Shown in pieces: positions 5,661 through 17,832 of a stretch of 37,733 bases of DNA. The position numbers and the translations under genes are program-made. How positions within the stretch are numbered: the first letter of the stretch is position 1; every line of letters starts with the position of its first letter. Origin of the DNA: a virus (Duplodnaviria > Caudoviricetes); IMG/VR virus record IMGVR_UViG_3300031963_000413, positions 1 through 37,733 of that record. One strand, given 5' to 3'. Under the pieces are notes generated by a model. That model did no database searches. It was not told the origin of the DNA and saw only the letters and a program-made list of their open reading frames with translations.

Positions 5661-8600
5661 TTATTTAGCATCCTTCATTGTCAAGGTTCCCCAGTACGTT
5701 GATCCACCATCATAGGTGATAAACGTCCACAAGTCACGTGCATTTGATGCTACTGTAGCAGGCGGTATAGCACCACCAGCCCAATAAACAGTGTTAGCAA
5801 ATGTTGGGTATCTTCCACCAGTTCCATCTTGCAATAATAGTAACGTAAACAATTGACCTGTTCCTGATGAAGGAGCATTGGTAAATGTAAATGCTACGTT
5901 TGCAGTCATAACATGACGGAAATAATTTGAGTCTGTAAGATTTACAGTATTTGCGCCATTCGTATTAGTATTAGCAACAATAAAATCTTTGACTGCTTTT
6001 AGTGTTGCGCCTTCGTTTGGTCCTGTTGGACCTTGTGGTCCCTGTGGTCCCTGCGGTCCTTGAGGACCAACAACACCCTGCGGACCTTGAGGACCTGTAA
6101 CACCCTGCGGACCTTGTGGACCAGTGTCACCTTTATCACCAGTGCGCACAAATGTCATCGTTACATTTGCGCCATTAGGGAATGATGTTACACCAGTTGT
6201 GTGGTCAACAGGAATAAAGAAGTAATCTGCAACATGATCATGCAGACCAGTTATATTAAAGAATGCAAAATTTAAAACGTTTGCGGTATTCGCAATTTTA
6301 AATGTTCCTTTAATACTTGATGTAGAATCGTCAATCGTTTGCAAATAATTAAACACATTTGCGCCGTTGTCGTCAATAAAATCAAGTATCATCGTATTTG
6401 CTGTTGAGAAATCAGCACTGTCAAATTTAACGTTTGCGGCACCTGGATCAGTGTTTGCAGTATTTGTTAAGTACACAAACTCAAAGGTTGCGCCACCGAA
6501 TTCACCAGTATCACCCTTCAATCCTTGTGGACCCTGTGGACCCTGTGGACCTGTGTTTCCTTGTGGACCCTGTGGTCCAGTTGAACCATTAGAACCTGCT
6601 GGACCTTGTGGTCCTTGAGGTCCAGTCACTGAGTCACCAGTTGATCCGATAGGACCTTGTGGACCCTGTGGACCCTGTGGTCCTTGTGGACCAACAGGAC
6701 CAACATCACTGATGTTGATTGTTCCAGCCATTGACGAGTGGAACTGGCAAACATAATACAACACGCTTGGTGCATCATATGGAACAGCAAATGTAATTGT
6801 ACCAACAGCAACACCACCATTTGTTATTCCATTGGTGTATATGTTTCCAGAACTATATGCCCCAGAAACTGTTTGAATCCAAAATGGATGACCAGAAGCA
6901 TTAACACTAAATGTATAGGTAAATCCACGCAACAGATTCAATGTCGGATTATTTGAACCATCAATTACATAAGCACTTGCGCCGCTGTTTGTGACTGTAT
7001 AATTTCTTGCGCCAGTAGCACCCTGTGGACCCTGCGGTCCTGTTGATCCTTGCGAACCTTGTGGACCCTGAGGACCCTGAGGACCAGCAACAGTTGATGC
7101 ATCACCCTGTGGACCTTGTGGACCTTGTGGTCCAGCATTACCAGTTAATCCTTGTGGACCCTGAGGACCCTGAGGACCCTGCGGACCTGTTGAACCTTGT
7201 GCGCCTTGAGGACCCTGAGGACCTGTTGATCCAGCAGCGCCTTGTGAACCCTGAGGACCTTGTGGACCTTGCGGTCCAGCATCACCTGTTAATCCTTGAA
7301 TACCTTGAGAACCTTGTGGACCTTGCGGACCTGTCACGGAGTTTCCTTGCGGACCTTGAGGACCCTGAGGACCAGCAACAGTTGACGCATCACCCTGTGG
7401 ACCTTGTGGACCTTGTGGACCCTGAGGACCAGTATTACCTGTTAATCCTTGAATACCTTGTGCGCCTTGCGGACCTTGTGGACCTTGAGGACCTTGAGGA
7501 CCAGGAACAGTTGATGCATCACCTTGCGCGCCTTGAGGACCTTGTGGACCCTGCGGACCTTGTGGACCAACAACACCTTGTGGACCTTGAGGACCTGTAT
7601 TTCCAGCAGGACCTTGAGGACCTTGTGGACCTGGGTCACCAGTGCTGCCTTGAGCACCCTGCGGACCTTGTGGACCAAGTGGACCCTGCGGACCTGCTAC
7701 ACCCTGCGGACCTTGTGGACCCTGAGGACCAACATCGCCTTGCGGACCTTGCGGACCTTGTGGACCTATCGCTCCTTGAGGACCCTGCGGACCCTGTGGA
7801 CCAGTTGTTCCTTGAGGACCCTGCGGACCTTGAGGACCAACGATAGGACCAGCGTCAATCCAAGATGAAGTTCCAGAACTCCACACATACAAATGACCAT
7901 CAGCGGTAACAATATATGCATCGCCATCCGATGCACCGCCAGGAAGATTTCCCACAGTTAATACTGTGCCAAGAACTGTGATGCCAGTTCCTGTTGCTCC
8001 AGATGGACCAGATGGACCAGCAACACCCTGTGGACCTTGAGGACCTTGCGGACCTGCTAATGATGGACCTGTTGGACCTAAAGCACCTTGCGGACCTTGA
8101 GGACCTTGTGGACCTAGATCGCCCTGATTACCTTGCGCGCCAATTAATCCTTGTGGACCCTGTGGACCCTGTGGACCCTGTGGACCTGCTACGCCCTGCG
8201 GACCTTGTGCTCCAGTAACGCCTTGTGGACCTTGAGGACCTTGCGGACCAGTTTCGCCTTGATCGCCTTTCGGACCCTGAGGACCAATACTTCCTTGAGG
8301 ACCTTGTGGACCTTGCGGACCTGTAACAGAATTTCCTTGTGGACCTTGTGGACCCTGTGGTCCAGGAACAGTTGATGCATCACCTTGTGCGCCTTGAGGA
8401 CCTTGCGGACCAAGTGGACCTTGAGGACCAACAGCACCTTGTGGACCTTGAGCACCAGTTGAACCTTGCGCGCCTTGAGGACCTTGCGGACCAAGTGGAC
8501 CTTGAGGACCAACAGCACCCTGAGGACCTTGTGGACCAGCATTACCTTGCGCACCTTGTGGACCTTGAGGACCAGTTGAACCTTGTGGACCCTGCGGACC

Positions 8601-8918
8601 TGCTAATCCTTGAATGCCTTGTGATCCAGTTACACCTTGAGGACCTTGAGGACCAGTTGAACCTTGTGGACCCTGCGGACCAGTAACTGATGCGCCTTGC
8701 GGACCAGAAGGACCTTGAGGACCAGCGACAGTTGAATTAGCACCACTTGGACCACTAGGACCTTGAGGACCTAATACGCCTTGCGGACCAGAAGGACCTT
8801 GCGGACCTTGAGGACCTGTCGCGCCACTGGGACCTTGAGGACCTGTAGAACCATCTGGACCCTGAGGACCTTGTGGACCTTGTGGTCCTGCAGCGTATGT
8901 AATGCCAATTGTCGTCAT
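5661..8918 (-). CDS. Collagen-like (GPQ)n fibre protein with inserted globular domains and C-terminal fibre domain
   Basis: Long G-X-Y runs dominated by GPQ; three globular inserts including a cupredoxin-like domain; C-terminal ~115 aa homologous to the C-terminus of 16279..17832. Confidence 0.9.
5662..5669 (-). promoter_or_regulatory. Putative late promoter (GCTAAATA) upstream of the GT4 cluster
   Basis: TAAATA core about 28 nt upstream of the GT4 start, overlapping the end of the collagen gene. Confidence 0.5.
7021..8889 (-). repeat. Degenerate 9-bp tandem repeat encoding Gly-Pro-Gln triplets (main collagen block)
   Basis: Plus-strand units ggaccttgt/ggaccctga/ggaccttgc, interrupted once by a globular insert (~7845-7995). 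Shorter blocks lie at ~6510-6700 and ~6020-6140. Confidence 0.95.
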
Positions 8919-9250
8919 TTCGTTACCTGTGGATTAACTGTTATAATACCTTCGAACATTCTTGTTGTTGCATTCGAAGTATCAATTTGTTTAATATCAA
9001 ACACATAACGACCTGCTTTGATATTTGCAGTCGATGCGGAATTGAGAGAAAATCGCACATTACCATTCGCAGCATTTACTACTGAAACAGTTAAATTTGC
9101 GGTTGCGCTGGTAGAATAGAATGATTTGCGCATAGATGATGAAAAGGTGTATCCTGCAACGTTGATTACGCTGCCATCATCTCTTCGGACTACGATATCG
9201 AGATTAAAATCTGTGCCCTGATCGAGGTCTACTTCTACAAATTGCGCCAT
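8915..9250 (-). CDS. Small virion structural/adaptor protein (BppU-N/Ig-like beta sandwich)
   Basis: DQGTDF...KAGRYVFDI...[15 protein letters not shown] pattern seen in T4-like phage structural proteins; 4-bp ATGA overlap with the collagen gene. Confidence 0.6.
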
Positions 9251-9313: not shown

Positions 9314-10273
9314 CTAGGTTCTGTCAGGCACCTCCCAATCCACCACAACTCCTGGGTTTGGTGTGATTGCTCTGGAGATAGCGCGGTTTTCTAATTTTCT
9401 ATTTATATAATCAACCCCTGTAATCTTGCGATAATGTTCAAGTTGATCTTCAGATAAAGAGTAAATGTAATCAATAATCTCTTTCTTAGAACGATTATGA
9501 TTCATTTCCAGTTTTTGCGGATCTGCAACTGGGTTGATAGTTTGTTTGGTATCATGGCTGCCAGAACGGACGTAATGATACACGCGGATTCTTCTTTGGT
9601 GGTAAATATGGTATCCAGCCAAAATCGTGCTAATAACGAATATTTGCTCTTCGCCTTCAAAGAAGATTTTGGTATTATATCCCACATCTTTAATCCAACT
9701 TACTGGCATAAAGAAGTTGCCAGCGCAAATATGAATAGATGGAGTTACATGCTCAGTTGCAGAAACCCAAGGACCATGAGCGTGGAGACGGAGATCTTTA
9801 TCGAATTGAAAATATCCTAACTTAACAGTGATGTCATCTGTTAGGGTGTGTTTAATAATTCTGTTTTCTTCAAGATCAAAGTTTTTTGTGCCAGCAGTTA
9901 AAACAACTTTATCTGTATTGGCGATTTTTCGAGCATCATTGTAATCTAGAATTAACTGGTGATCCCAATCTTTGTCGAACAACATATGAGAATCAATTTG
10001 ATATTGAAACTCTTCGTCGTAGATTTGCATTGAATTGATACTTCGCGCCCAGACTACTCCGTCAGAGAACTCAGGATCAATGCGTTTATATCTAATTCTA
10101 GGATGTTTAACTAGATCAGGGTTTGTAGTTTGTAAACTGTTCTCAAGTTTAGTTTGCTCAAACACACCATATGTGATTTGGTTTCTACCTGATTCAGTAT
10201 CAAGTAGACTCTGTATAGTTGGTGCTAATAACTTGTCTCTATAAGAACATATGTTTACAAATATTTTAGCCAT
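9314..10273 (-). CDS. GT60-like polypeptide/hydroxyproline GlcNAc transferase (Skp1 Gnt1-like, Pfam 'GlcNAc')
   Basis: IFVNICSYRD, GVFEQ, GVVWARS, QIDSHMLFDKDWD and FFEGEE motifs match the I-F-x-x-I-x-SYRD / DSH / F.GEE signatures of this family. Confidence 0.8.
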   Translation of the reverse strand: MAKIFVNICSYRDKLLAPTIQSLLDTESGRNQITYGVFEQTKLENSLQTTNPDLVKHPRIRYKRIDPEFSDGVVWARSINSMQIYDEEFQYQIDSHMLFDKDWDHQLILDYNDARKIANTDKVVLTAGTKNFDLEENRIIKHTLTDDITVKLGYFQFDKDLRLHAHGPWVSATEHVTPSIHICAGNFFMPVSWIKDVGYNTKIFFEGEEQIFVISTILAGYHIYHQRRIRVYHYVRSGSHDTKQTINPVADPQKLEMNHNRSKKEIIDYIYSLSEDQLEHYRKITGVDYINRKLENRAISRAITPNPGVVVDWEVPDRT

Positions 10274-11013
10274 TATTCTACTTTCTTATTGAGTGTATAC
10301 TTTTTACGAATCATATAATACTTTCTGTAAAAATTAGATTCGTGGAACCATTTTAATATTTTGTTATAATCGTCTTGCTCTTGAGTAACAGCACCATAAC
10401 TCGCAACTATTGTTTTATCAGTAATGAATGGAATTATGTGCAAAATAGGATCACCTGCTTTGATTTCTAATTCGCATTCTCGTTTAGGTGAGCAAATAAA
10501 ATTAACTGTTGTGAAGCCTTTGTAATCTACAACTCCTGGATACACATAAAGATCATCTAAGAACGTAGAGTGATAAAACGCTGGCATCACAAGTGCTGAA
10601 ATATTACCATTACCATGAATTTTCCATGCTCCAGGAAAATTTAAAATTGATGGCTGAACGCCACCTTGAGGCGCAAAGATTCCATCAACAATGCCTATGT
10701 CCATATATTGTGGCTGACCCAGAGGGGTTTGACGTTTTTTAGAATCTTCTCCAGCGTTTCCAACTACACCAACAAATCCTGCTTTGTTTGCTTTGATATG
10801 AAAATTGCTCCAAGCAGGAATAATATATCCTATTCTAGCATAGTCATGCATACCAGGACATTTAGGGAAATTGTAATTATCAAACTTTTTTTCTTGATGT
10901 TCTTTAAATGGTTTTAAATCTTTAGCAAGAATAGGCGGATAATGCGGATAAACTACTTTAGATTTGTCCACAAACTCAAGATCTGGTTTATCTTTTTTTA
11001 AAAAATTAAACAT
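10273..11013 (-). CDS. Hypothetical protein, paralog of 11016..11750 (possible DUF6065-like)
   Basis: KCPGMHDYARIGYIIP, PGVVDY and IKAGDPILHIIPF align with the neighbour's RCLPLLDAMSLGFTIP, SAMVDT and IPAGTPLVTAIPI. Confidence 0.6.
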   Translation of the reverse strand: MFNFLKKDKPDLEFVDKSKVVYPHYPPILAKDLKPFKEHQEKKFDNYNFPKCPGMHDYARIGYIIPAWSNFHIKANKAGFVGVVGNAGEDSKKRQTPLGQPQYMDIGIVDGIFAPQGGVQPSILNFPGAWKIHGNGNISALVMPAFYHSTFLDDLYVYPGVVDYKGFTTVNFICSPKRECELEIKAGDPILHIIPFITDKTIVASYGAVTQEQDDYNKILKWFHESNFYRKYYMIRKKYTLNKKVE

Positions 11014-11015
11014 AA

Positions 11016-11750
11016 TTATTTCTTCTCTCTCAATTCATAAGTATAGTAGTGCGTTCTATTATTTTGAATTCTGCCTATTCTTTCAACAGTTTTAAACTCA
11101 CTTTGCGTAATTGGTCGAACTACAGGCTTCTTCTCAAACGAATTTCGTTTGATTGGTATAGCAGTAACTAATGGTGTGCCTGCAGGAATGTGAACATCAG
11201 CATCAAATATATTTAACAACGCAGGAAAATTAACTTCTTTAGGATATTTGTCCGTATCAACCATTGCGCTTAAACATGTAAACGGTTGATCAAAATGATT
11301 TAGTGGGCTAATGAATAGCGTTGACCAACCTGGTGCTGTTTTAATGATCCATCGATTTAAAAATTTTAGCGGATTACCATGATTAGGTCTTGCTGCGTTT
11401 GGACCACCAACTTGATCAGCAGTATGAAACTCGCAAACTTTAAGACCAGGAGGATTAATCACATCTATTTGACTATTATTATGATTACTACGAATGTGGA
11501 GATCGGCACAAATAGGAATAGTAAATCCTAGCGACATCGCATCTAATAACGGTAAACAACGTTTTGCTGACATTGCTTTGTTACCAAATGAGTCACGATC
11601 ATCACCAAACGTTGGCTCAAGGTTCTTAAACCAATCAGGAAGATGTTTAACAGCAGCTCTTGGCTCAGGGATAATACCAACCAAATCAGGATGACAATAA
11701 AACTCTATGATTGGATTATCCCAAAACTTGAGTTTTTTAAATGTTACCAT
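11016..11750 (-). CDS. Hypothetical protein (possible DUF6065-like beta-fold family)
   Basis: PDWFKNL, KRCLPLLDAMSLGF, WIIKTAPGWSTLF and IPAGTPLVTAIPIKR; overlaps the upstream oxygenase gene by 7 bp. Confidence 0.6.
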   Translation of the reverse strand: MVTFKKLKFWDNPIIEFYCHPDLVGIIPEPRAAVKHLPDWFKNLEPTFGDDRDSFGNKAMSAKRCLPLLDAMSLGFTIPICADLHIRSNHNNSQIDVINPPGLKVCEFHTADQVGGPNAARPNHGNPLKFLNRWIIKTAPGWSTLFISPLNHFDQPFTCLSAMVDTDKYPKEVNFPALLNIFDADVHIPAGTPLVTAIPIKRNSFEKKPVVRPITQSEFKTVERIGRIQNNRTHYYTYELREKK

Positions 11751-12346
11751 GTATTTTTACCCATCACCCAAGCAACCAACGATTTTCGAATACCAGAAGT
11801 CACTGGTCGAACACGATGTGGCATTTTGGAATCAAAGAAAATCACATCACCAAGTTCTGGTTTAGCGAGAAATGGTTCATCAACACGACCATTTAATACG
11901 CACTCAAACTCACCGCCTTCATATTTGCTTGGGTCAGTAAGAACAATAGTTGCGCTGATTTTTCTTTCAAATGGAGTTGACAAATTTGATGCATCAACAT
12001 GCCAATCATAATGTTGTTTGTCTTTAGACTTGTAAACAGTGTATTGAAAATTTTCAAAACCATCAACATCATACATAAAATGATCATAATTGACGGCAGA
12101 AACTAAACTAGAAAATTTTTGATAAAGCCAATCTGAAGTTTGGTCATGCATAATCCACATGACTTCACTATCACGAGTTTTTTTGTTGACTTGACCCTTA
12201 CCTGTCCCAGCGCCGACGGCACCTTTTTGAAATTTTTGCAGGTCTTCTAGGTCTAGGATCTTTTCTATTTCGTCTTTGGTAAATGCTTTTGTAGCAACAC
12301 AAAAACGATTCAAAACACGAGCATAACGTTGCACTGGATACGGCAT
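11744..12346 (-). CDS. 2OG-Fe(II) oxygenase, PKHD/prolyl-4-hydroxylase-like
   Basis: YDWHVD (HxD), RKIS, YEGGEF and PHRVRPVTSGIRKSLVAW (His...RxS); upstream GAGG Shine-Dalgarno. Confidence 0.9.
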   Translation of the reverse strand: MPYPVQRYARVLNRFCVATKAFTKDEIEKILDLEDLQKFQKGAVGAGTGKGQVNKKTRDSEVMWIMHDQTSDWLYQKFSSLVSAVNYDHFMYDVDGFENFQYTVYKSKDKQHYDWHVDASNLSTPFERKISATIVLTDPSKYEGGEFECVLNGRVDEPFLAKPELGDVIFFDSKMPHRVRPVTSGIRKSLVAWVMGKNTW

Positions 12347-12384
12347 AAAATAAACCTCAAAAATAACGAAATCAAATTATAACT

Positions 12385-12392
12385 TATTTATG
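12385..12392 (-). promoter_or_regulatory. Putative late promoter (CATAAATA) upstream of the oxygenase-GT60 operon
   Basis: One mismatch to TATAAATA; intergenic, about 39 nt upstream of the start codon. Confidence 0.55.
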
Positions 12393-12426
12393 AAACTTTG
12401 TAAAGTATATTTGTACGACTTTATAC

Positions 12427-14436
12427 TTACTCAAGTTTGATGACAATTTGTCCACCAGGAGGAACAGCAACAGCAAGATTATCAATTGGAAATGAATCAT
12501 ATGGAACAACTGTTTCTGGAATAGTTGGAGCCACAGTTGAGATTGGTCCACCTGGGAAGTATACGCCAAGAATAGTTTGCGCTTGCCCAACATTTCCTGG
12601 TGTATATGCTGTAATTGGGCGACCTGTTTCTGGTTGATTAGCAATTGGGTATGCTATGTTGTAGTTGGTGCTATAGTTGACGCTATATGCAGTAACTGGT
12701 CTAGATGCTTCTGGTTGATTTGCTACTGGATATGCAATATTATAATTGGTATTATAATTGATCGTGAATGCAGTCGCTGGCTGATTAGCAATCGGCTGGT
12801 TAGCAACTGGATAAGCAACATTATAATTTGTGTTATACAAAATACTATATGCTGTTGCTGGTTGGTTAGCAATAGGATACGCAATATTGTAGTTTGTGTT
12901 GTAAAGAATACTGTACGCAGTCGCAGGTTGGTTAGCAATTGGCTGATTAGCAACAGGATACACAGTATTATAATTTGTAGAATATGCAGTAACTGGTCTA
13001 GATGCTTCTGGTTGATTTGCTACTGGATATGCGATGTTGTAATTAGTTGAGTACGCAGTAACTGGGCGTGACGCCTCAGGTTGACTTGCTACTGGATACG
13101 CAACATTGTAGTTAGTATTATAGAGAATCGTGTACGCAGTAACAGGTCGACCAGTTTCTGGTTGGTTAGCAATTGGATATGCAACGTTGTAATTTGTGTT
13201 GTAGAGAATAGTATATGCTGTCGCAGGTTGGGTTGCGATAGGATATGCTACGTTGTAATTCGTTGAGTATGTAATCGAATATGCAGTTGCAGGTTGGTTG
13301 GCTATAGGATATGCAACGTTGTAGTTTGTATTGTAATTTGCGTTGTTACCACCAGCAGGAGTGCAAACAAAATTTGCTGTATAATACACCTCAAATTCTG
13401 GATAGAAGTTATAATCGATTGAATAATATGTGAATGGTGTGGGGCATGAACCACTTCCATTATAATTTCCTGATGTATTGAATGCTCCATAAAAATTATC
13501 AGAATAATATTCATTCGCATACCAGTTAAAACTTGTCGCTGGATTGTAACTTGCGATTGGTTGGTTGGCTACTGGATATGCAATATTATAATTCGTTGAG
13601 TATGCAGTAATCGGTCTTCCAGTTTCAGGTTGGTTGGCAACTGGATAAACAGTATTGTAATTTGTAGAATATGCTGTAACAGGTCTAGATGCCTCGGGTC
13701 TATTCGCAACAGGATATGCAGTATTATAGTTAGTTGAATATGTGATGCTATAAGCAGTCGCTGGTCTTGATGCTTCAGGTCTATTTGCTACTGGATATGC
13801 AACGTTGTAGTTCGTGTTATAGAGAATCGTGTAAGCAGTGATCGGCTGATTAGCAATAGGATACGCAACGTTATAGTTGGTATTATACAGAATAGTGTAT
13901 GCAGTAATCGGCTGATTGGCAATAGGATACGCGACGTTATAGTTGGTGTTATAATTTGTGCTGTAAGCAGTTGCAGGACGCGATGCTTCTGGTCTGTTTG
14001 CTACTGGGTATGCAACATTATAGTTTGTAGCCCAAGCAGTAATAGGTCTAGATGCTTCTGGCTGTGTTGCAATCGGATATGCAATATTATAGTTGGTGCT
14101 GTAGTTTGTACTGTATGCAGTTGCAGGACGAGCTGCTTCAGGTTGTGATGCGATCGGATATACTGTATTGTAATTTGTGTTGTACAGAATACTGTACGCC
14201 GTCGCTGGTTGATTAGCAATTGGCTGATTTGCGATCGGATAAACAGTGTTATAATTTGTTGCATACGTGATTGCGTATGCTGCAGCCACTGGATCATTAC
14301 CCGTTCCAGCGCGCCCAGATATGGTTCCCTTGAATTGACCATATGGAATCGTAAGGTTTCCAGGGGCATTGAACGTGGTAACTGCTCTGGCTGCACCTAA
14401 AATCCAAGATTTTGATAAAATTAATGGCTTTGACAT
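12427..14436 (-). CDS. Tyr/Asn/Pro repeat protein A: predicted hairpin fibre/adhesin (10+10 repeats around a central tip)
   Basis: Short N domain, 10 repeats, ~72-aa unique aromatic-rich segment, 10 repeats, short C domain. Paralog of 14477..16273. The function is inferred. Confidence 0.75.
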   Translation of the reverse strand: MSKPLILSKSWILGAARAVTTFNAPGNLTIPYGQFKGTISGRAGTGNDPVAAAYAITYATNYNTVYPIANQPIANQPATAYSILYNTNYNTVYPIASQPEAARPATAYSTNYSTNYNIAYPIATQPEASRPITAWATNYNVAYPVANRPEASRPATAYSTNYNTNYNVAYPIANQPITAYTILYNTNYNVAYPIANQPITAYTILYNTNYNVAYPVANRPEASRPATAYSITYSTNYNTAYPVANRPEASRPVTAYSTNYNTVYPVANQPETGRPITAYSTNYNIAYPVANQPIASYNPATSFNWYANEYYSDNFYGAFNTSGNYNGSGSCPTPFTYYSIDYNFYPEFEVYYTANFVCTPAGGNNANYNTNYNVAYPIANQPATAYSITYSTNYNVAYPIATQPATAYTILYNTNYNVAYPIANQPETGRPVTAYTILYNTNYNVAYPVASQPEASRPVTAYSTNYNIAYPVANQPEASRPVTAYSTNYNTVYPVANQPIANQPATAYSILYNTNYNIAYPIANQPATAYSILYNTNYNVAYPVANQPIANQPATAFTINYNTNYNIAYPVANQPEASRPVTAYSVNYSTNYNIAYPIANQPETGRPITAYTPGNVGQAQTILGVYFPGGPISTVAPTIPETVVPYDSFPIDNLAVAVPPGGQIVIKLE

Positions 14437-14460
14437 GTTCGCTCGCTACAACCGCAAAAG

Positions 14461-14468
14461 TATTTAGC
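14461..14468 (-). promoter_or_regulatory. Putative late promoter (GCTAAATA) between the two repeat-protein genes
   Basis: TAAATA core in the 40-nt intergenic gap, about 25 nt upstream of the start. Confidence 0.55.
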
Positions 14469-14476
14469 GATTCGAA

Positions 14477-16273
14477 TCACTCAATCTTTACGATGATTTG
14501 TCCGCCAGAAGGAACCTGTACTGGGTAATTTTCATTATCCTTGAAGTCCCAATAATTAACAACAGTTTCAGGCACAGTTGGAGCAAGCGAGGCAACATCA
14601 CCGCCTGGGAAATACACACCTAGCACATTTGTTGGTGTTCCAGGCGCACCAGGAATATAAGATGTGAGCGGTTGGTTAGCAATTGGCTGATTTTGTATAG
14701 GATATACGACATTATAATTTGTGTTGTAGTTTGTTGACCATGTGGTAATTGGTTGGTTGCCAACAGGATAGACAATATTGTAATTTGTATTATAGTTTAC
14801 TGAGTATGCTGTAGCAGGCTGATTGGCGATAGGTCGATTTCCTTCCACTGCAACTACGTTATAATTCGTTACCCATGCTGTTGCTGGTTGGTTTGCTATT
14901 GGCTGATTAACTACTGGATATACAACGTTGTAGTTGGTGTTGTAGTTTGTGGTGTATGCAGTTGCTGGCTGATTAGCAATAGGTTGTGCAGCAATCGGAT
15001 ATGAAATGTTGTAATTTATGTTATAATTCGTAACCCATGCATTTGCAGGCTGATTAGCAATAGGTTGACTGCCGATAGGATATGAAATGTTATAATTAGT
15101 AGTATAATTCGTTACCCATGCAGTAATTGGCTGATTGGCAAGATTTTGTTGACTGATTGGATAAGCAATATTGTAGTTGGTGTTATAGTTTGTTTGCCAA
15201 GTTGTTGCTGGTTGGTTTGCGATTGGCTGATTAACTACTGGATATACAACGTTGTAGTTGGTGTTGTAGTTTGTTTGTAATGCAGAATAAAAAATTTCAA
15301 TATAACCCGATGTTGGATCTCCTGGTAATGGGCTTCCAAATTCGTCTCTAATTGCATTAGCGTACATACTAACAGGATCTGGCAAATTTGTATTTGTGCC
15401 TAATGAATCCCATAAATTTGTGCCATAATTTCCCGATGTTAACTGTATGGGATATTGCGAGAATTGGTAATCAGCCCCGCCTACCCAATATGATGCAGCC
15501 CAATCTACATTACCGATTGGCTGATTTCCGACAGGATATGCGACGTTGTAATTAGTATTATAATTAGTTACCCATGCTGTTTCTGGCTGATTTGCTATTG
15601 GCTGATTAACTACTGGATACACAACATTATAAAATGTTGCATAATTCGTTACCCATGCTGTTGCTGGTTGATTAGCAATAGGTCTGTTTCCAGTGCCATA
15701 GACAATATTGTAAAAAGTGACGTAATTAGTTGAATATGCAGTTGCTGGTTGATTACCAATAGGTCTGTTACCTTCAACTCCGACAGTGTTATAGAAGGTG
15801 ACATAGTTTGTCACCCAAGCAATTGCTGGTTGATTGTCTATTGGACGATTTTCAATAGGATATACGACATTATAATTCGTGTTGTAATTAGTTGAATATG
15901 CAGTTGCTGGTTGATTTCCGATTGGATAAACAATATTATAATTTGTACTATAATTTGTAACCCAAGTTGTTGCAGGCTGATTCGCAACAGGTTGATTAAC
16001 TACTGGATATACTACATTGTAGTTTGTAATCCAAGCAGTAGCAGGTCTATTGGCAATAGGTTGAGTCGCGACTGGATACGCAACATTATAATTTGTATTG
16101 TAATTTACTGTATAAACTGCAGTAGGAACGTTACCAGAACCACCGCGACCAGAAACAGTTGCAATGTGTCTTCCGTAATCTATGAAAAGATTAGTTGGTG
16201 AATTGAAGGTCTGCGTACCGCGCGAAGGACCTACGATCCAGGATTTTTCTAATGTATCTGGTCTACGTGCCAT
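14477..16273 (-). CDS. Tyr/Asn/Pro repeat protein B: predicted hairpin fibre/adhesin (8+8 repeats around a central tip)
   Basis: Same architecture as 12427..14436; shared termini KSWI.G...TFN.P.NL.I.YG...SGR.G.GN and LGVYFPGG...PETVV...VP.GGQI..K.E. Confidence 0.75.
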   Translation of the reverse strand: MARRPDTLEKSWIVGPSRGTQTFNSPTNLFIDYGRHIATVSGRGGSGNVPTAVYTVNYNTNYNVAYPVATQPIANRPATAWITNYNVVYPVVNQPVANQPATTWVTNYSTNYNIVYPIGNQPATAYSTNYNTNYNVVYPIENRPIDNQPAIAWVTNYVTFYNTVGVEGNRPIGNQPATAYSTNYVTFYNIVYGTGNRPIANQPATAWVTNYATFYNVVYPVVNQPIANQPETAWVTNYNTNYNVAYPVGNQPIGNVDWAASYWVGGADYQFSQYPIQLTSGNYGTNLWDSLGTNTNLPDPVSMYANAIRDEFGSPLPGDPTSGYIEIFYSALQTNYNTNYNVVYPVVNQPIANQPATTWQTNYNTNYNIAYPISQQNLANQPITAWVTNYTTNYNISYPIGSQPIANQPANAWVTNYNINYNISYPIAAQPIANQPATAYTTNYNTNYNVVYPVVNQPIANQPATAWVTNYNVVAVEGNRPIANQPATAYSVNYNTNYNIVYPVGNQPITTWSTNYNTNYNVVYPIQNQPIANQPLTSYIPGAPGTPTNVLGVYFPGGDVASLAPTVPETVVNYWDFKDNENYPVQVPSGGQIIVKIE

Positions 16274-16278
16274 GAATA

Positions 16279-17832
16279 TTATCTAGCGTCTTTAACAGCA
16301 AGTGTGCCAATATAGGTCGCGCCACCGTCATATGTTGTAAATGTCCAGACATCTGTTCTTCCAGCAGCGGAAGTTGTTGCTGGAGGCACTTGCCCACCAG
16401 CCCAATAAACAGTGTTACTCCAAGAAACAGTTTTACCACCCCCACTACCTTGGATAACCACCAATGAAAACGTCATAGCAGTTCCTGATGGTGGTGCGTT
16501 GGTGAAGTTAAACGTTGTACTACCAGACAAAGTATATCTGAACCAGTTAGAATTAGCAAGGTTTGCTGACACAGTTCCTGAAACAGTGCTAGTGTCTAAG
16601 AAATCCTTGACAGACTTCATTGTTCCTGTGATGTTACCAGAAGTATTGATTTCACCAGTTACAGTTAAGTTTGCAGCAGTTAAATTACCAGTGTTTAGAG
16701 GTGCTGGTAGTCCATTTGCTAGGAAATTCCAAGTATCCGTAATATCATTCCAAAACAATTCAGCGTTACCAGAAACAGCAGAACGCTGCACTCGAATTGT
16801 TCCGTTGCCGTCTGTTGTTGCACCGAAGCGTAGGATATACTTGTCATCAGCAGTTGTTGCTGGTGCTTGGATTGGATCAATTACAGTCAATGTTGTGATT
16901 GTAGCATTGATCAAATTAGCATTCGCAATATTAGCAAGGCTAACTACTGCTAGATTATTTGTTTGAGTTCTATTTGAAACAACGAGGTTCCCTGATGTTG
17001 TGTTTTGTGTAACAGCAAGATTTCCAGTTGATGTATTTTGAGTTACAGAAAGATTACCAGAGAACGTATTTTGAGCAACAAAAGCATTACCAGTAAATGT
17101 GTTCCAAGTTACACCGAGATTAGAATAAAGATTTGCGTTGCCTGTAACTTCTAGTCTTGATCCAACGTTAACATTTCCTGTGACATTGGCACTAGCAAAA
17201 AAGAATGTATTTGGCGTCACTTCAAACGTTGCAGCGCCATGAGTATTTGCTACATTAACATGGTTGCCAAAGAAGTATGTGTTTGGCGATACGTTAAAGC
17301 GAGCATCAGCAGTTGTATTTGAAACTCTTACTTTCTGCGATGAAATCGTTGTATTTGATTCAACGTTAAACGTGCCACCTGCTTGCGTATTTGAGATTAC
17401 GACATTTGATGCCGTGATTAACGTATTTGAAGAAACGTTGAATGTGCCGCCAACAGTTGCATTTGAAATGCTTACGTTTGTTGCATAGATAACTGTGTTT
17501 GTATTAATCTGATACAAGTCAGTAGCACCCATGCGGCGATAGTGAATATCACCAGCATCAACATATAGGTGATTGGTTGAGTTGTCTAATTCGACGTTGA
17601 ATACTGTTAGAGTTCCGTCGATATTTGTGTCATCAGCGACATCAAGAATAACACCGCCAGTAGTATTTGCGATTCGAAGATAACCCTCGTTGATCGTCAC
17701 ATTTCCGCGTGGCTTTACAAAGTTGCCGCGAGTAATTTCGTTCACATCATTTGCAACAAGATTGTCATTAATACGCCATTGATTAAACGTATTTGATGTG
17801 CTAATAATTGCAACGTTAATTGTATTTGCCAT
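16279..17832 (-). CDS. Tail fibre-like protein (beta-repeat shaft, conserved C-terminal domain)
   Basis: N-terminal NTFNQWR motif typical of T4-like fibre proteins; repeats such as GNLSVTQNTSTGNLAVTQNTTSGNL; C-terminus homologous to that of the collagen fibre. Confidence 0.7.
   Translation of the reverse strand: MANTINVAIISTSNTFNQWRINDNLVANDVNEITRGNFVKPRGNVTINEGYLRIANTTGGVILDVADDTNIDGTLTVFNVELDNSTNHLYVDAGDIHYRRMGATDLYQINTNTVIYATNVSISNATVGGTFNVSSNTLITASNVVISNTQAGGTFNVESNTTISSQKVRVSNTTADARFNVSPNTYFFGNHVNVANTHGAATFEVTPNTFFFASANVTGNVNVGSRLEVTGNANLYSNLGVTWNTFTGNAFVAQNTFSGNLSVTQNTSTGNLAVTQNTTSGNLVVSNRTQTNNLAVVSLANIANANLINATITTLTVIDPIQAPATTADDKYILRFGATTDGNGTIRVQRSAVSGNAELFWNDITDTWNFLANGLPAPLNTGNLTAANLTVTGEINTSGNITGTMKSVKDFLDTSTVSGTVSANLANSNWFRYTLSGSTTFNFTNAPPSGTAMTFSLVVIQGSGGGKTVSWSNTVYWAGGQVPPATTSAAGRTDVWTFTTYDGGATYIGTLAVKDAR

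Follow-up and report, generated by a model that had tools for sequence, protein, structure and literature searches.

Mirror-complementary repeat arms in two tandem tail-region proteins of a T4-like phage, and their reading as a fold-back stalk

The DNA analysed here (the window; 37,733 nucleotides (nt), positions 1 to 37,733 of IMG/VR virus record IMGVR_UViG_3300031963_000413; Duplodnaviria, Caudoviricetes) is one 37.7 kb contig, whose minus strand encodes the tail-region genes of a T4-like myophage. Its two subjects are gene A, encoding a protein of 669 amino acids (aa), and the paralogue B that precedes it. Each consists of two terminal segments, here called the base, between which two arms of short repeats flank a variable central segment, here called the tip. 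The features are listed in Table 1.

The module code of protein A

An earlier sequence-only reading had divided the arms of A into repeats, each with n four-residue tyrosine modules and m five-residue proline modules, and had listed n and m for every repeat. A regular expression (regex) recovered 18 complete repeats with exactly the listed values, and a separately trained tokeniser, which started from A and learned from 99 of 104 full-length proteins (the five of another chemistry being excluded), returned the same strings. Of the two-module alphabet originally proposed, the pairing of tyrosine with proline modules stood, but four letters are needed: T (xTAYx, 5 aa), Y (xxYx, 4 aa), Q (xxYP, 4 aa) and P (xxxxP, 5 aa), with xxYP and xTAYx each self-pairing. 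A Y module carries one Tyr, a P module one Pro and a Q module both, while T–T rungs are aromatic on each side. The two arms are of similar length, ~248 and ~252 aa.

Under the pairing rule T–T, Q–Q and Y–P, arm 2 reversed is arm 1 over 54 consecutive modules, counted from the base. Expressed as (n,m), all 9/9 complete repeats match when arm 2 is mirrored and n and m are swapped, the innermost repeat having been dropped since, as first cautioned, the two innermost repeats adjoin the tip and are ambiguous. Other orders fitted less well, with five matches for reversal without the swap and five for parallel order with it; a parallel or solenoid-like order was rejected with six matches, compared with nine for the mirror. 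Shuffling gave a mean of 3.7 matches (p ~0.001), and the exact chance of the mirror is 1 in 756 arrangements given the composition, or ~0.005 allowing all four rules.

If pairing is physical, partner modules should covary, and this was tested through module subtypes, with comparison restricted to outer Y modules and their partner outer P modules so as to remove bias from position within the repeat. Covariation was found: in A, 11/11 Ile-starting Y modules face E-x-x-R-P and 3/3 others face IANQP (11/0/0/3, Fisher p 0.003), and among those 11, the three ITY modules face ETGRP and the eight others face EA[SA]RP (3/0/0/8, p 0.006). Across relatives, I-x-Y faced E-x-x-R-P in agreement with this in 393/405 position-matched pairs, which come from related proteins and are not 405 independent events, compared with 332 ± 5 (maximum 353) of 405 in within-protein shuffles and 218/270 after a shift of one unit. 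The mirror order is real, is not due to chance, and is richer than first described.

Table 1. Features of the window discussed in the text (all on the minus strand).
Feature	Position	Strand	Basis or annotation
Gene A, 669 aa	12427..14436	-	Open reading frame (ORF); no Pfam or PHROG family
A, N-terminal half of base domain, aa 1-50, conserved K-[TS]-W + YG motifs	14287..14436	-	Alignment; predicted local distance difference test score (pLDDT) ~90 over aa 11-50
A, arm 1, aa 51-298, 10 repeats, 55 modules	13543..14286	-	Regex and tokeniser parse
A, variable tip, aa 299-360, two Cys, predicted beta strands	13357..13542	-	Parse, model, tip comparison
A, arm 2, aa 361-612, mirror complement of arm 1	12601..13356	-	Module pairing
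A, C-terminal half of base domain, aa 613-669, LGV-x-x-PGG motif	12427..12600	-	Alignment; pLDDT ~90; co-aligns with N half to single domains
Paralogue B, 598 aa, same base as A	14477..16273	-	Arms ~15518-16123 and 14654-15274; Cys-free tip ~15275-15517, unrelated to that of A
Upstream tail-fibre gene, 517 aa	16279..17832	-	phrog_7760 + phrog_9017 tail fiber
2-oxoglutarate (2OG)-Fe(II) oxygenase, directly downstream of A	11744..12346	-	PF13640
Two phrog_7084 genes (one with DUF6065) and N-acetylglucosamine (GlcNAc)-type glycosyltransferase, after the oxygenase	9314..11750	-	PF19541, PF11397, phrog_7084

Recurrence of the rule across the family

Paralogue B, which like A matched no Pfam or PHROG family, has a module pattern different from that of A and obeys the same mirror rule in 7/7 repeats (1 in 42). 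Further distinct patterns also obey it (13/13 units in relative L007 A, 10/10 in L006 B and 7/7 in another), and L019 sets three Y modules opposite three P modules. Of 99 proteins tokenised, 92 were parsed automatically, one with a hand-set tip, and six had no tip, leaving 93 to be scored, and in 55/93 the mirror is unbroken to within two modules of the tip. Among the 42 proteins with at least five comparable units, 295/403 units fit the mirror and 16 proteins are perfect; the rival rules accounted for 207, 146 (parallel) and 144 of the same units, and shuffles for 128. When the 18 proteins of one clade rich in 8- and 9-mers, the 8/9-mer clade, were removed, 16/24 proteins were perfect and 200/228 units matched. 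Three of the eight imperfect proteins outside this clade were inspected, and two have variant modules at the expected place, including a 12-residue bulged P module in L007 B. L003 B uses a private module pair twice, both times at mirror positions, although two other units do differ.

Family members range from 260 to 850 aa, with units gained or lost in both arms together, and close relatives differ by paired changes of one unit per arm (P0008 vs P0003, L017 vs P0027). On the question, raised earlier, of whether the symmetry holds at all lengths, the two arms were closely matched over arm lengths of ~20–340 aa (rho 0.95, 89/93 within 25 aa), with four clearly unequal relatives, discussed below, as exceptions. 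One further protein, P0044, has a B-type N-terminus, an A-type C-terminus and no tip, pointing to a deletion or collapse that spans the tandem pair of genes.

The tips are mosaic, most of them with cysteine pairs. The 93 tips fell into 49 clusters, with the same tip type found on different stalks and bases. Those of A and B are unrelated to each other, and the B tip is 63–71% identical to tips of the 8/9-mer clade, compared with 16% identity to the tip of its closest base relative. Cysteines are concentrated here, with 194/199 located in tips and five elsewhere; their number per tip is even in 72 and zero in 15 of the 93.

A profile of the C-terminal 63 residues recovered 121 representatives at 50% identity (a few weak ones unrelated), and in these wider relatives both terminal segments are kept, with repeats of other kinds between them. 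One distant branch has a second chemistry, in which 10-mers lie opposite 11-mers and two special 10-mers lie opposite each other; the rule accounts for 87/92 modules in 16 proteins, the classes having been defined after inspection of L039 and L042, and 8/16 proteins are perfect and equal in count. Either module class may occupy either arm (L039 vs L042 and P0154), and the gap between the arms is 8–30 aa. Three genes of this kind, L039:5935-6765, L041:5392-6198 and L042:5362-6192, combine the same base and 10/11-mers with only 9–19 aa between the arms and a different gene neighbourhood. A 19-mer branch uses one self-complementary repeat, with 12+12 full units in L067:2365-4314 and 11+11 in L070:3339-5174, and the same odd unit occupies the sixth place from the base in both arms. 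By eye, the L067/L070 tip looks like those of L003 B and L006 B, despite the different stalk. In L044:4732-6198 and in proteins P0113, P0115 and P0147, the middle is far larger (~225 aa in L044) or the arms seem to include additional segments with Cys, which might be side knobs or nested hairpins.

Searches outside the family gave little. Neither A nor the short relative P0160 matched any of 50,697 annotated phage records; 25 short relatives gave no Pfam or PHROG family of note and no PF21722; and a profile of 27 short members found nothing in the PDB at expectation values (E) up to 1. No long fused form was seen among 105 matches of 119–2000 aa, which is weak evidence. In the literature, mainly open-access texts, no description was found of the A/B family or of a complementary repeat code that sets register.

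Predicted base and genomic setting

AlphaFold2 models were made of A (63 sequences) and of the 280-aa member P0054 (27 sequences in register), and in both pLDDT is 80–95 over most of both terminal segments. Both models place the N and C termini in one beta-sandwich, in agreement with the single base domain put forward from the sequence, so that a base built from both termini is predicted. In structural alignments, 74–101 residues of the N and C segments jointly covered single jelly-roll domains in most rows, which is more than either half contains, so that the two termini are folded as one unit in the models. Both models also make strands of the first and last T modules, matching the expectation from T–T pairing, and neither model has a helix of four or more residues. 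Fold searches with the modelled bases pointed to no clear family (best Z scores 4.9 and 5.3). A viral structure library gave nothing below E 0.03, and several entries for glycine-rich domains came no lower than E 0.8–2.5; Atlas gave no usable match for P0054 and, in a structural ranking for a short relative, placed a PF21722 cluster first at a template-modelling (TM) score of 0.38, under the Atlas bar.

By Pfam and PHROG annotation the window contains gp5, gp25, gp6 and wedge genes, the 517-aa fibre, B, A and the oxygenase, together with two phrog_7084 genes, glycosyltransferases, a collagen fibre and neck genes. A homologue of the last 105 aa of the fibre lies directly 5′ of an A/B-family gene in 17/21 loci, and the linkage also holds in phages of other gene order. 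This C-terminal domain has 36–90% identity across phages with differing gene orders and, in all 17 loci where it was found, stands just before the family gene. From this arrangement, the C-terminal domain of the fibre is a candidate docking site for the A/B base. Its only PDB match was at E 0.2, with no solved relative below that value. On the other side, an oxygenase is immediately downstream of the family gene in 22/23 loci, and ORFs of similar size, matched by length only, follow it in most. The cassette of oxygenase, phrog_7084 (DUF6065-like) and glycosyltransferase genes (9314–12346) could modify the Pro- and Asn-rich stalk. Further along, at positions 5661–9250, an LtfC-like gene of 111 aa precedes a collagen-repeat fibre of 1085 aa, and the sole GC-rich part of the window (7001–9000, 54–56%) lies within this region.

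Eighteen public sequencing runs contain at least 93% of the sequence words of positions 12000–16400, 14 of them labelled freshwater metagenome and four fungus metagenome, and five of the 18 may be source runs of the window; two RNA runs contain only 5–6% of the words. Protein A is identical on two IMG/VR contigs, and contigs assembled from two public runs, each belonging to a different study, cover gene A again in three pieces (one being 13003–14908) that overlap by only ~9 nt.

A probable fold-back stalk, rival readings and similar known systems

Because the mirror rule survives changes of length, reaches down to module subtypes and recurs in another chemistry, the simplest reading is a chain that folds back on itself, with a split base and a central tip. 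We give a probability of roughly 0.7 to the whole of this reading, in which mirror-complementary arms form a stalk that carries a host-binding tip on the split base. The arms would zip antiparallel in mirror register, either within one chain or between neighbouring chains of a side-by-side oligomer, into a thin stalk, in which tyrosines probably pack on prolines of the opposite strand, and the irregular order of modules would leave a single fully matched register, preventing slippage between near-identical repeats. Some 54 rungs of 13–15 Å correspond to a stalk of at most 70–80 nm, so that the 80 nm mentioned originally stands as an upper bound only. Much as gp38 does with gp37, the base would cap the upstream fibre at its C-terminal domain, and the swappable central tip would be the receptor-binding part, probably binding the host. 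Fold-back, as first proposed, is supported by the mirror rule, the subtypes, the second chemistry and the co-folded termini, but the stalk is modelled at too low a confidence for the antiparallel contacts that it implies to be seen.

Several observations weigh against this reading. In both models the stalk has pLDDT ~30–40 (<50), and anti-diagonal contacts were not obtained. None of the 18 proteins of the 8/9-mer clade is perfect at unit level with this tokeniser, although their module counts are close. Arms are clearly unequal in 4/93 relatives (P0002, P0036, P0040 and P0045), and P0040 and P0045 have base and tip in common yet carry 1+3 and 2+1 full units; 6/99 tokenised proteins are without a tip (five tipless, one cut short); and 3/16 proteins of the second chemistry have arms whose counts are at least two units apart. 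The unequal, tipless and short exceptions may reflect assembly collapse, which the pair P0040 and P0045 suggests. Over the broad family a crude count of anchors, scored in 46/54 proteins, is only moderately balanced (rho 0.51, 26/46 within one), and hence the strict code is demonstrated in two branches and not in all. Finally, presence in the virion, docking to the fibre and binding to cells are all deduced from sequence and gene position.

A fold-back stalk might have another job: it could be a whisker, decorate the capsid, act as a glycosylated shield or help the neighbouring fibre to assemble. A and B sit between baseplate-wedge and neck genes, where T4 has both its short fibre and fibritin; genes for an oxygenase and a sugar transferase accompany the family gene; and the receptor-binding role of the tip is itself a deduction. 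We nonetheless regard such a job as unlikely, since hypervariable, exchanged tips on a conserved base and stalk resemble host-range proteins as described (PMC9608196, PMC6851490), and the direct link to the fibre C-terminus persists in phages of different gene order.

Slightly less likely still is a head-to-tail swapped dimer or ring, in which extended chains pair arm 1 antiparallel with arm 2 of another chain, each base is made from two chains, and the variable segments lie mid-rod. It predicts the same mirror rule, sequence alone cannot separate partners within a chain from those between chains, and the stalk is not resolved by the single-chain models. Those models do, however, build the base from both termini at pLDDT 80–95; the gap of 8–30 aa between the arms in the distant branch suits a turn, and mosaic, Cys-paired segments of 50–130 aa suit an exposed end.

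At the DNA level, gene A (12427–14436) has 82 repeated 20-mer positions compared with a mean of 15 in codon shuffles, and its longest exact repeat is 51 nt, compared with 17–35 nt. The gene contains a single 20-nt inverted pair, of a size expected by chance; the other repeats are direct, with 60–87% identity. An inverted DNA duplication as the source of the mirror was rejected, that one pair being the only candidate. Avoidance of DNA identity between repeats was also rejected, the opposite having been found: the units are more alike than in codon shuffles, so that recombination between units seems to be ongoing, with the mirror order kept. That the symmetry arose through DNA duplication, gene conversion or mis-assembly and has no structural meaning, a view for which this likeness and the collapsed look of some records speak, is very improbable and already largely refuted, since the sizeable repeats are all direct and direct copying gives a parallel order, which fits more poorly (146 vs 295 of 403 units), copying cannot exchange Tyr for Pro modules or pair subtypes, and independent assemblies agree.

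The fold-back reading has a known counterpart in the needle of T4 gp37 (knob D10, stem and tip D11), whose chain runs out, turns and returns, with the termini at the knob and a receptor-binding tip; 216 residues (811–1026) span 20 nm, in an interwoven trimer that forms the end of gp37 (PMC9603124). An out-and-back chain with its termini together would be common to both: the termini co-fold in the models of A and P0054, in which the stalk has low pLDDT. The gp37 tip is the end of the fibre protein itself whereas A is a separate gene product, and A has a modular repeat code, of which the available gp37 text describes none for the stem (PMC9603124). Searches gave no sequence homology to the gp37 tip, with nothing for the family profile in the PDB and no PHROG match for A or B. 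The gp37 stem is held by His-bound iron at His-x-His sites; A has no His and B one, in its base, and metal sites of this type are absent.

The TNF (tumour necrosis factor)-like, glycine-rich scaffold (Pam3 gp24, ALK; PF21722, Gly_rich_2) is a beta-sandwich with long loops to a hypervariable distal tip (PMC9608196). Pam3 gp24 aligned with the two modelled bases at Z 3.8 (root-mean-square deviation (rmsd) 4.0, 81 residues aligned, 18% identity) and Z 4.6 (rmsd 3.7, 81 aligned, 21%), tied with many jelly-rolls; the 21% was the top identity among the 50 rows of the second structural search. Profile comparisons with hhalign were not significant (E 0.06–0.28), and neither A nor B matched PF21722. 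Six Gly-rich loops form a polyglycine lattice in Pam3 gp24 (PMC9608196), whereas A would have one giant hairpin insertion, with Gly at 9/562 residues of arms and tip, no Gly runs and no such lattice. Derivation of the base from this scaffold, by replacement of the polyglycine loops with one hairpin, is possible and stands as a lead.

The gp38 adhesin (S16, T2-type) is encoded by its own gene, caps the end of the fibre by means of conserved Trp and bears hypervariable segments (PMC6851490). The A/B family resembles it in one invariant N-terminal Trp and a gene placed after that of the fibre, on which its product may dock. It differs in having neither the three-helix attachment bundle with three Trp nor the polyglycine sandwich described for gp38 (PMC6851490): a single Trp is conserved and no helix is modelled. 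Bovine ultralong heavy-chain complementarity-determining region 3 (CDR-H3), in which a stalk projects from a beta-sandwich and ends in a disulfide-rich knob for binding (PMC8602281), is an analogy only, being of unrelated origin, with a loop of ~50+ residues and no repeat code described.

By function alone, then, the proteins would be a variant of the fold-back fibre tips known from T4 gp37, and their novelty rests on the code. To our knowledge, known repeat proteins fold through contacts between neighbouring repeats. In the A/B family, selection for pairing of repeats up to ~550 residues apart can be read from sequence alone, through legible rules, compensatory changes and more than one alphabet. 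It is somewhat more likely than not that these proteins form a new class whose fold is set by long-range complementarity. In it, modules would pair antiparallel like the bases of a stem-loop, their order would encode the register, insertions made in pairs would adjust the length, and two alphabets or more would have evolved on one base. Such a protein would amount to a programmable, sequence-addressable peptide zipper, tens of nm long, displaying an exchangeable binding knob, and, if a structure confirms it, nature would have supplied a rule for designing orthogonal peptide zippers and rods of tunable length. On the same condition, A, B and their relatives would be a candidate family of host-range proteins of uncultured freshwater phages, without counterpart in Pfam, PHROGs or the PDB.
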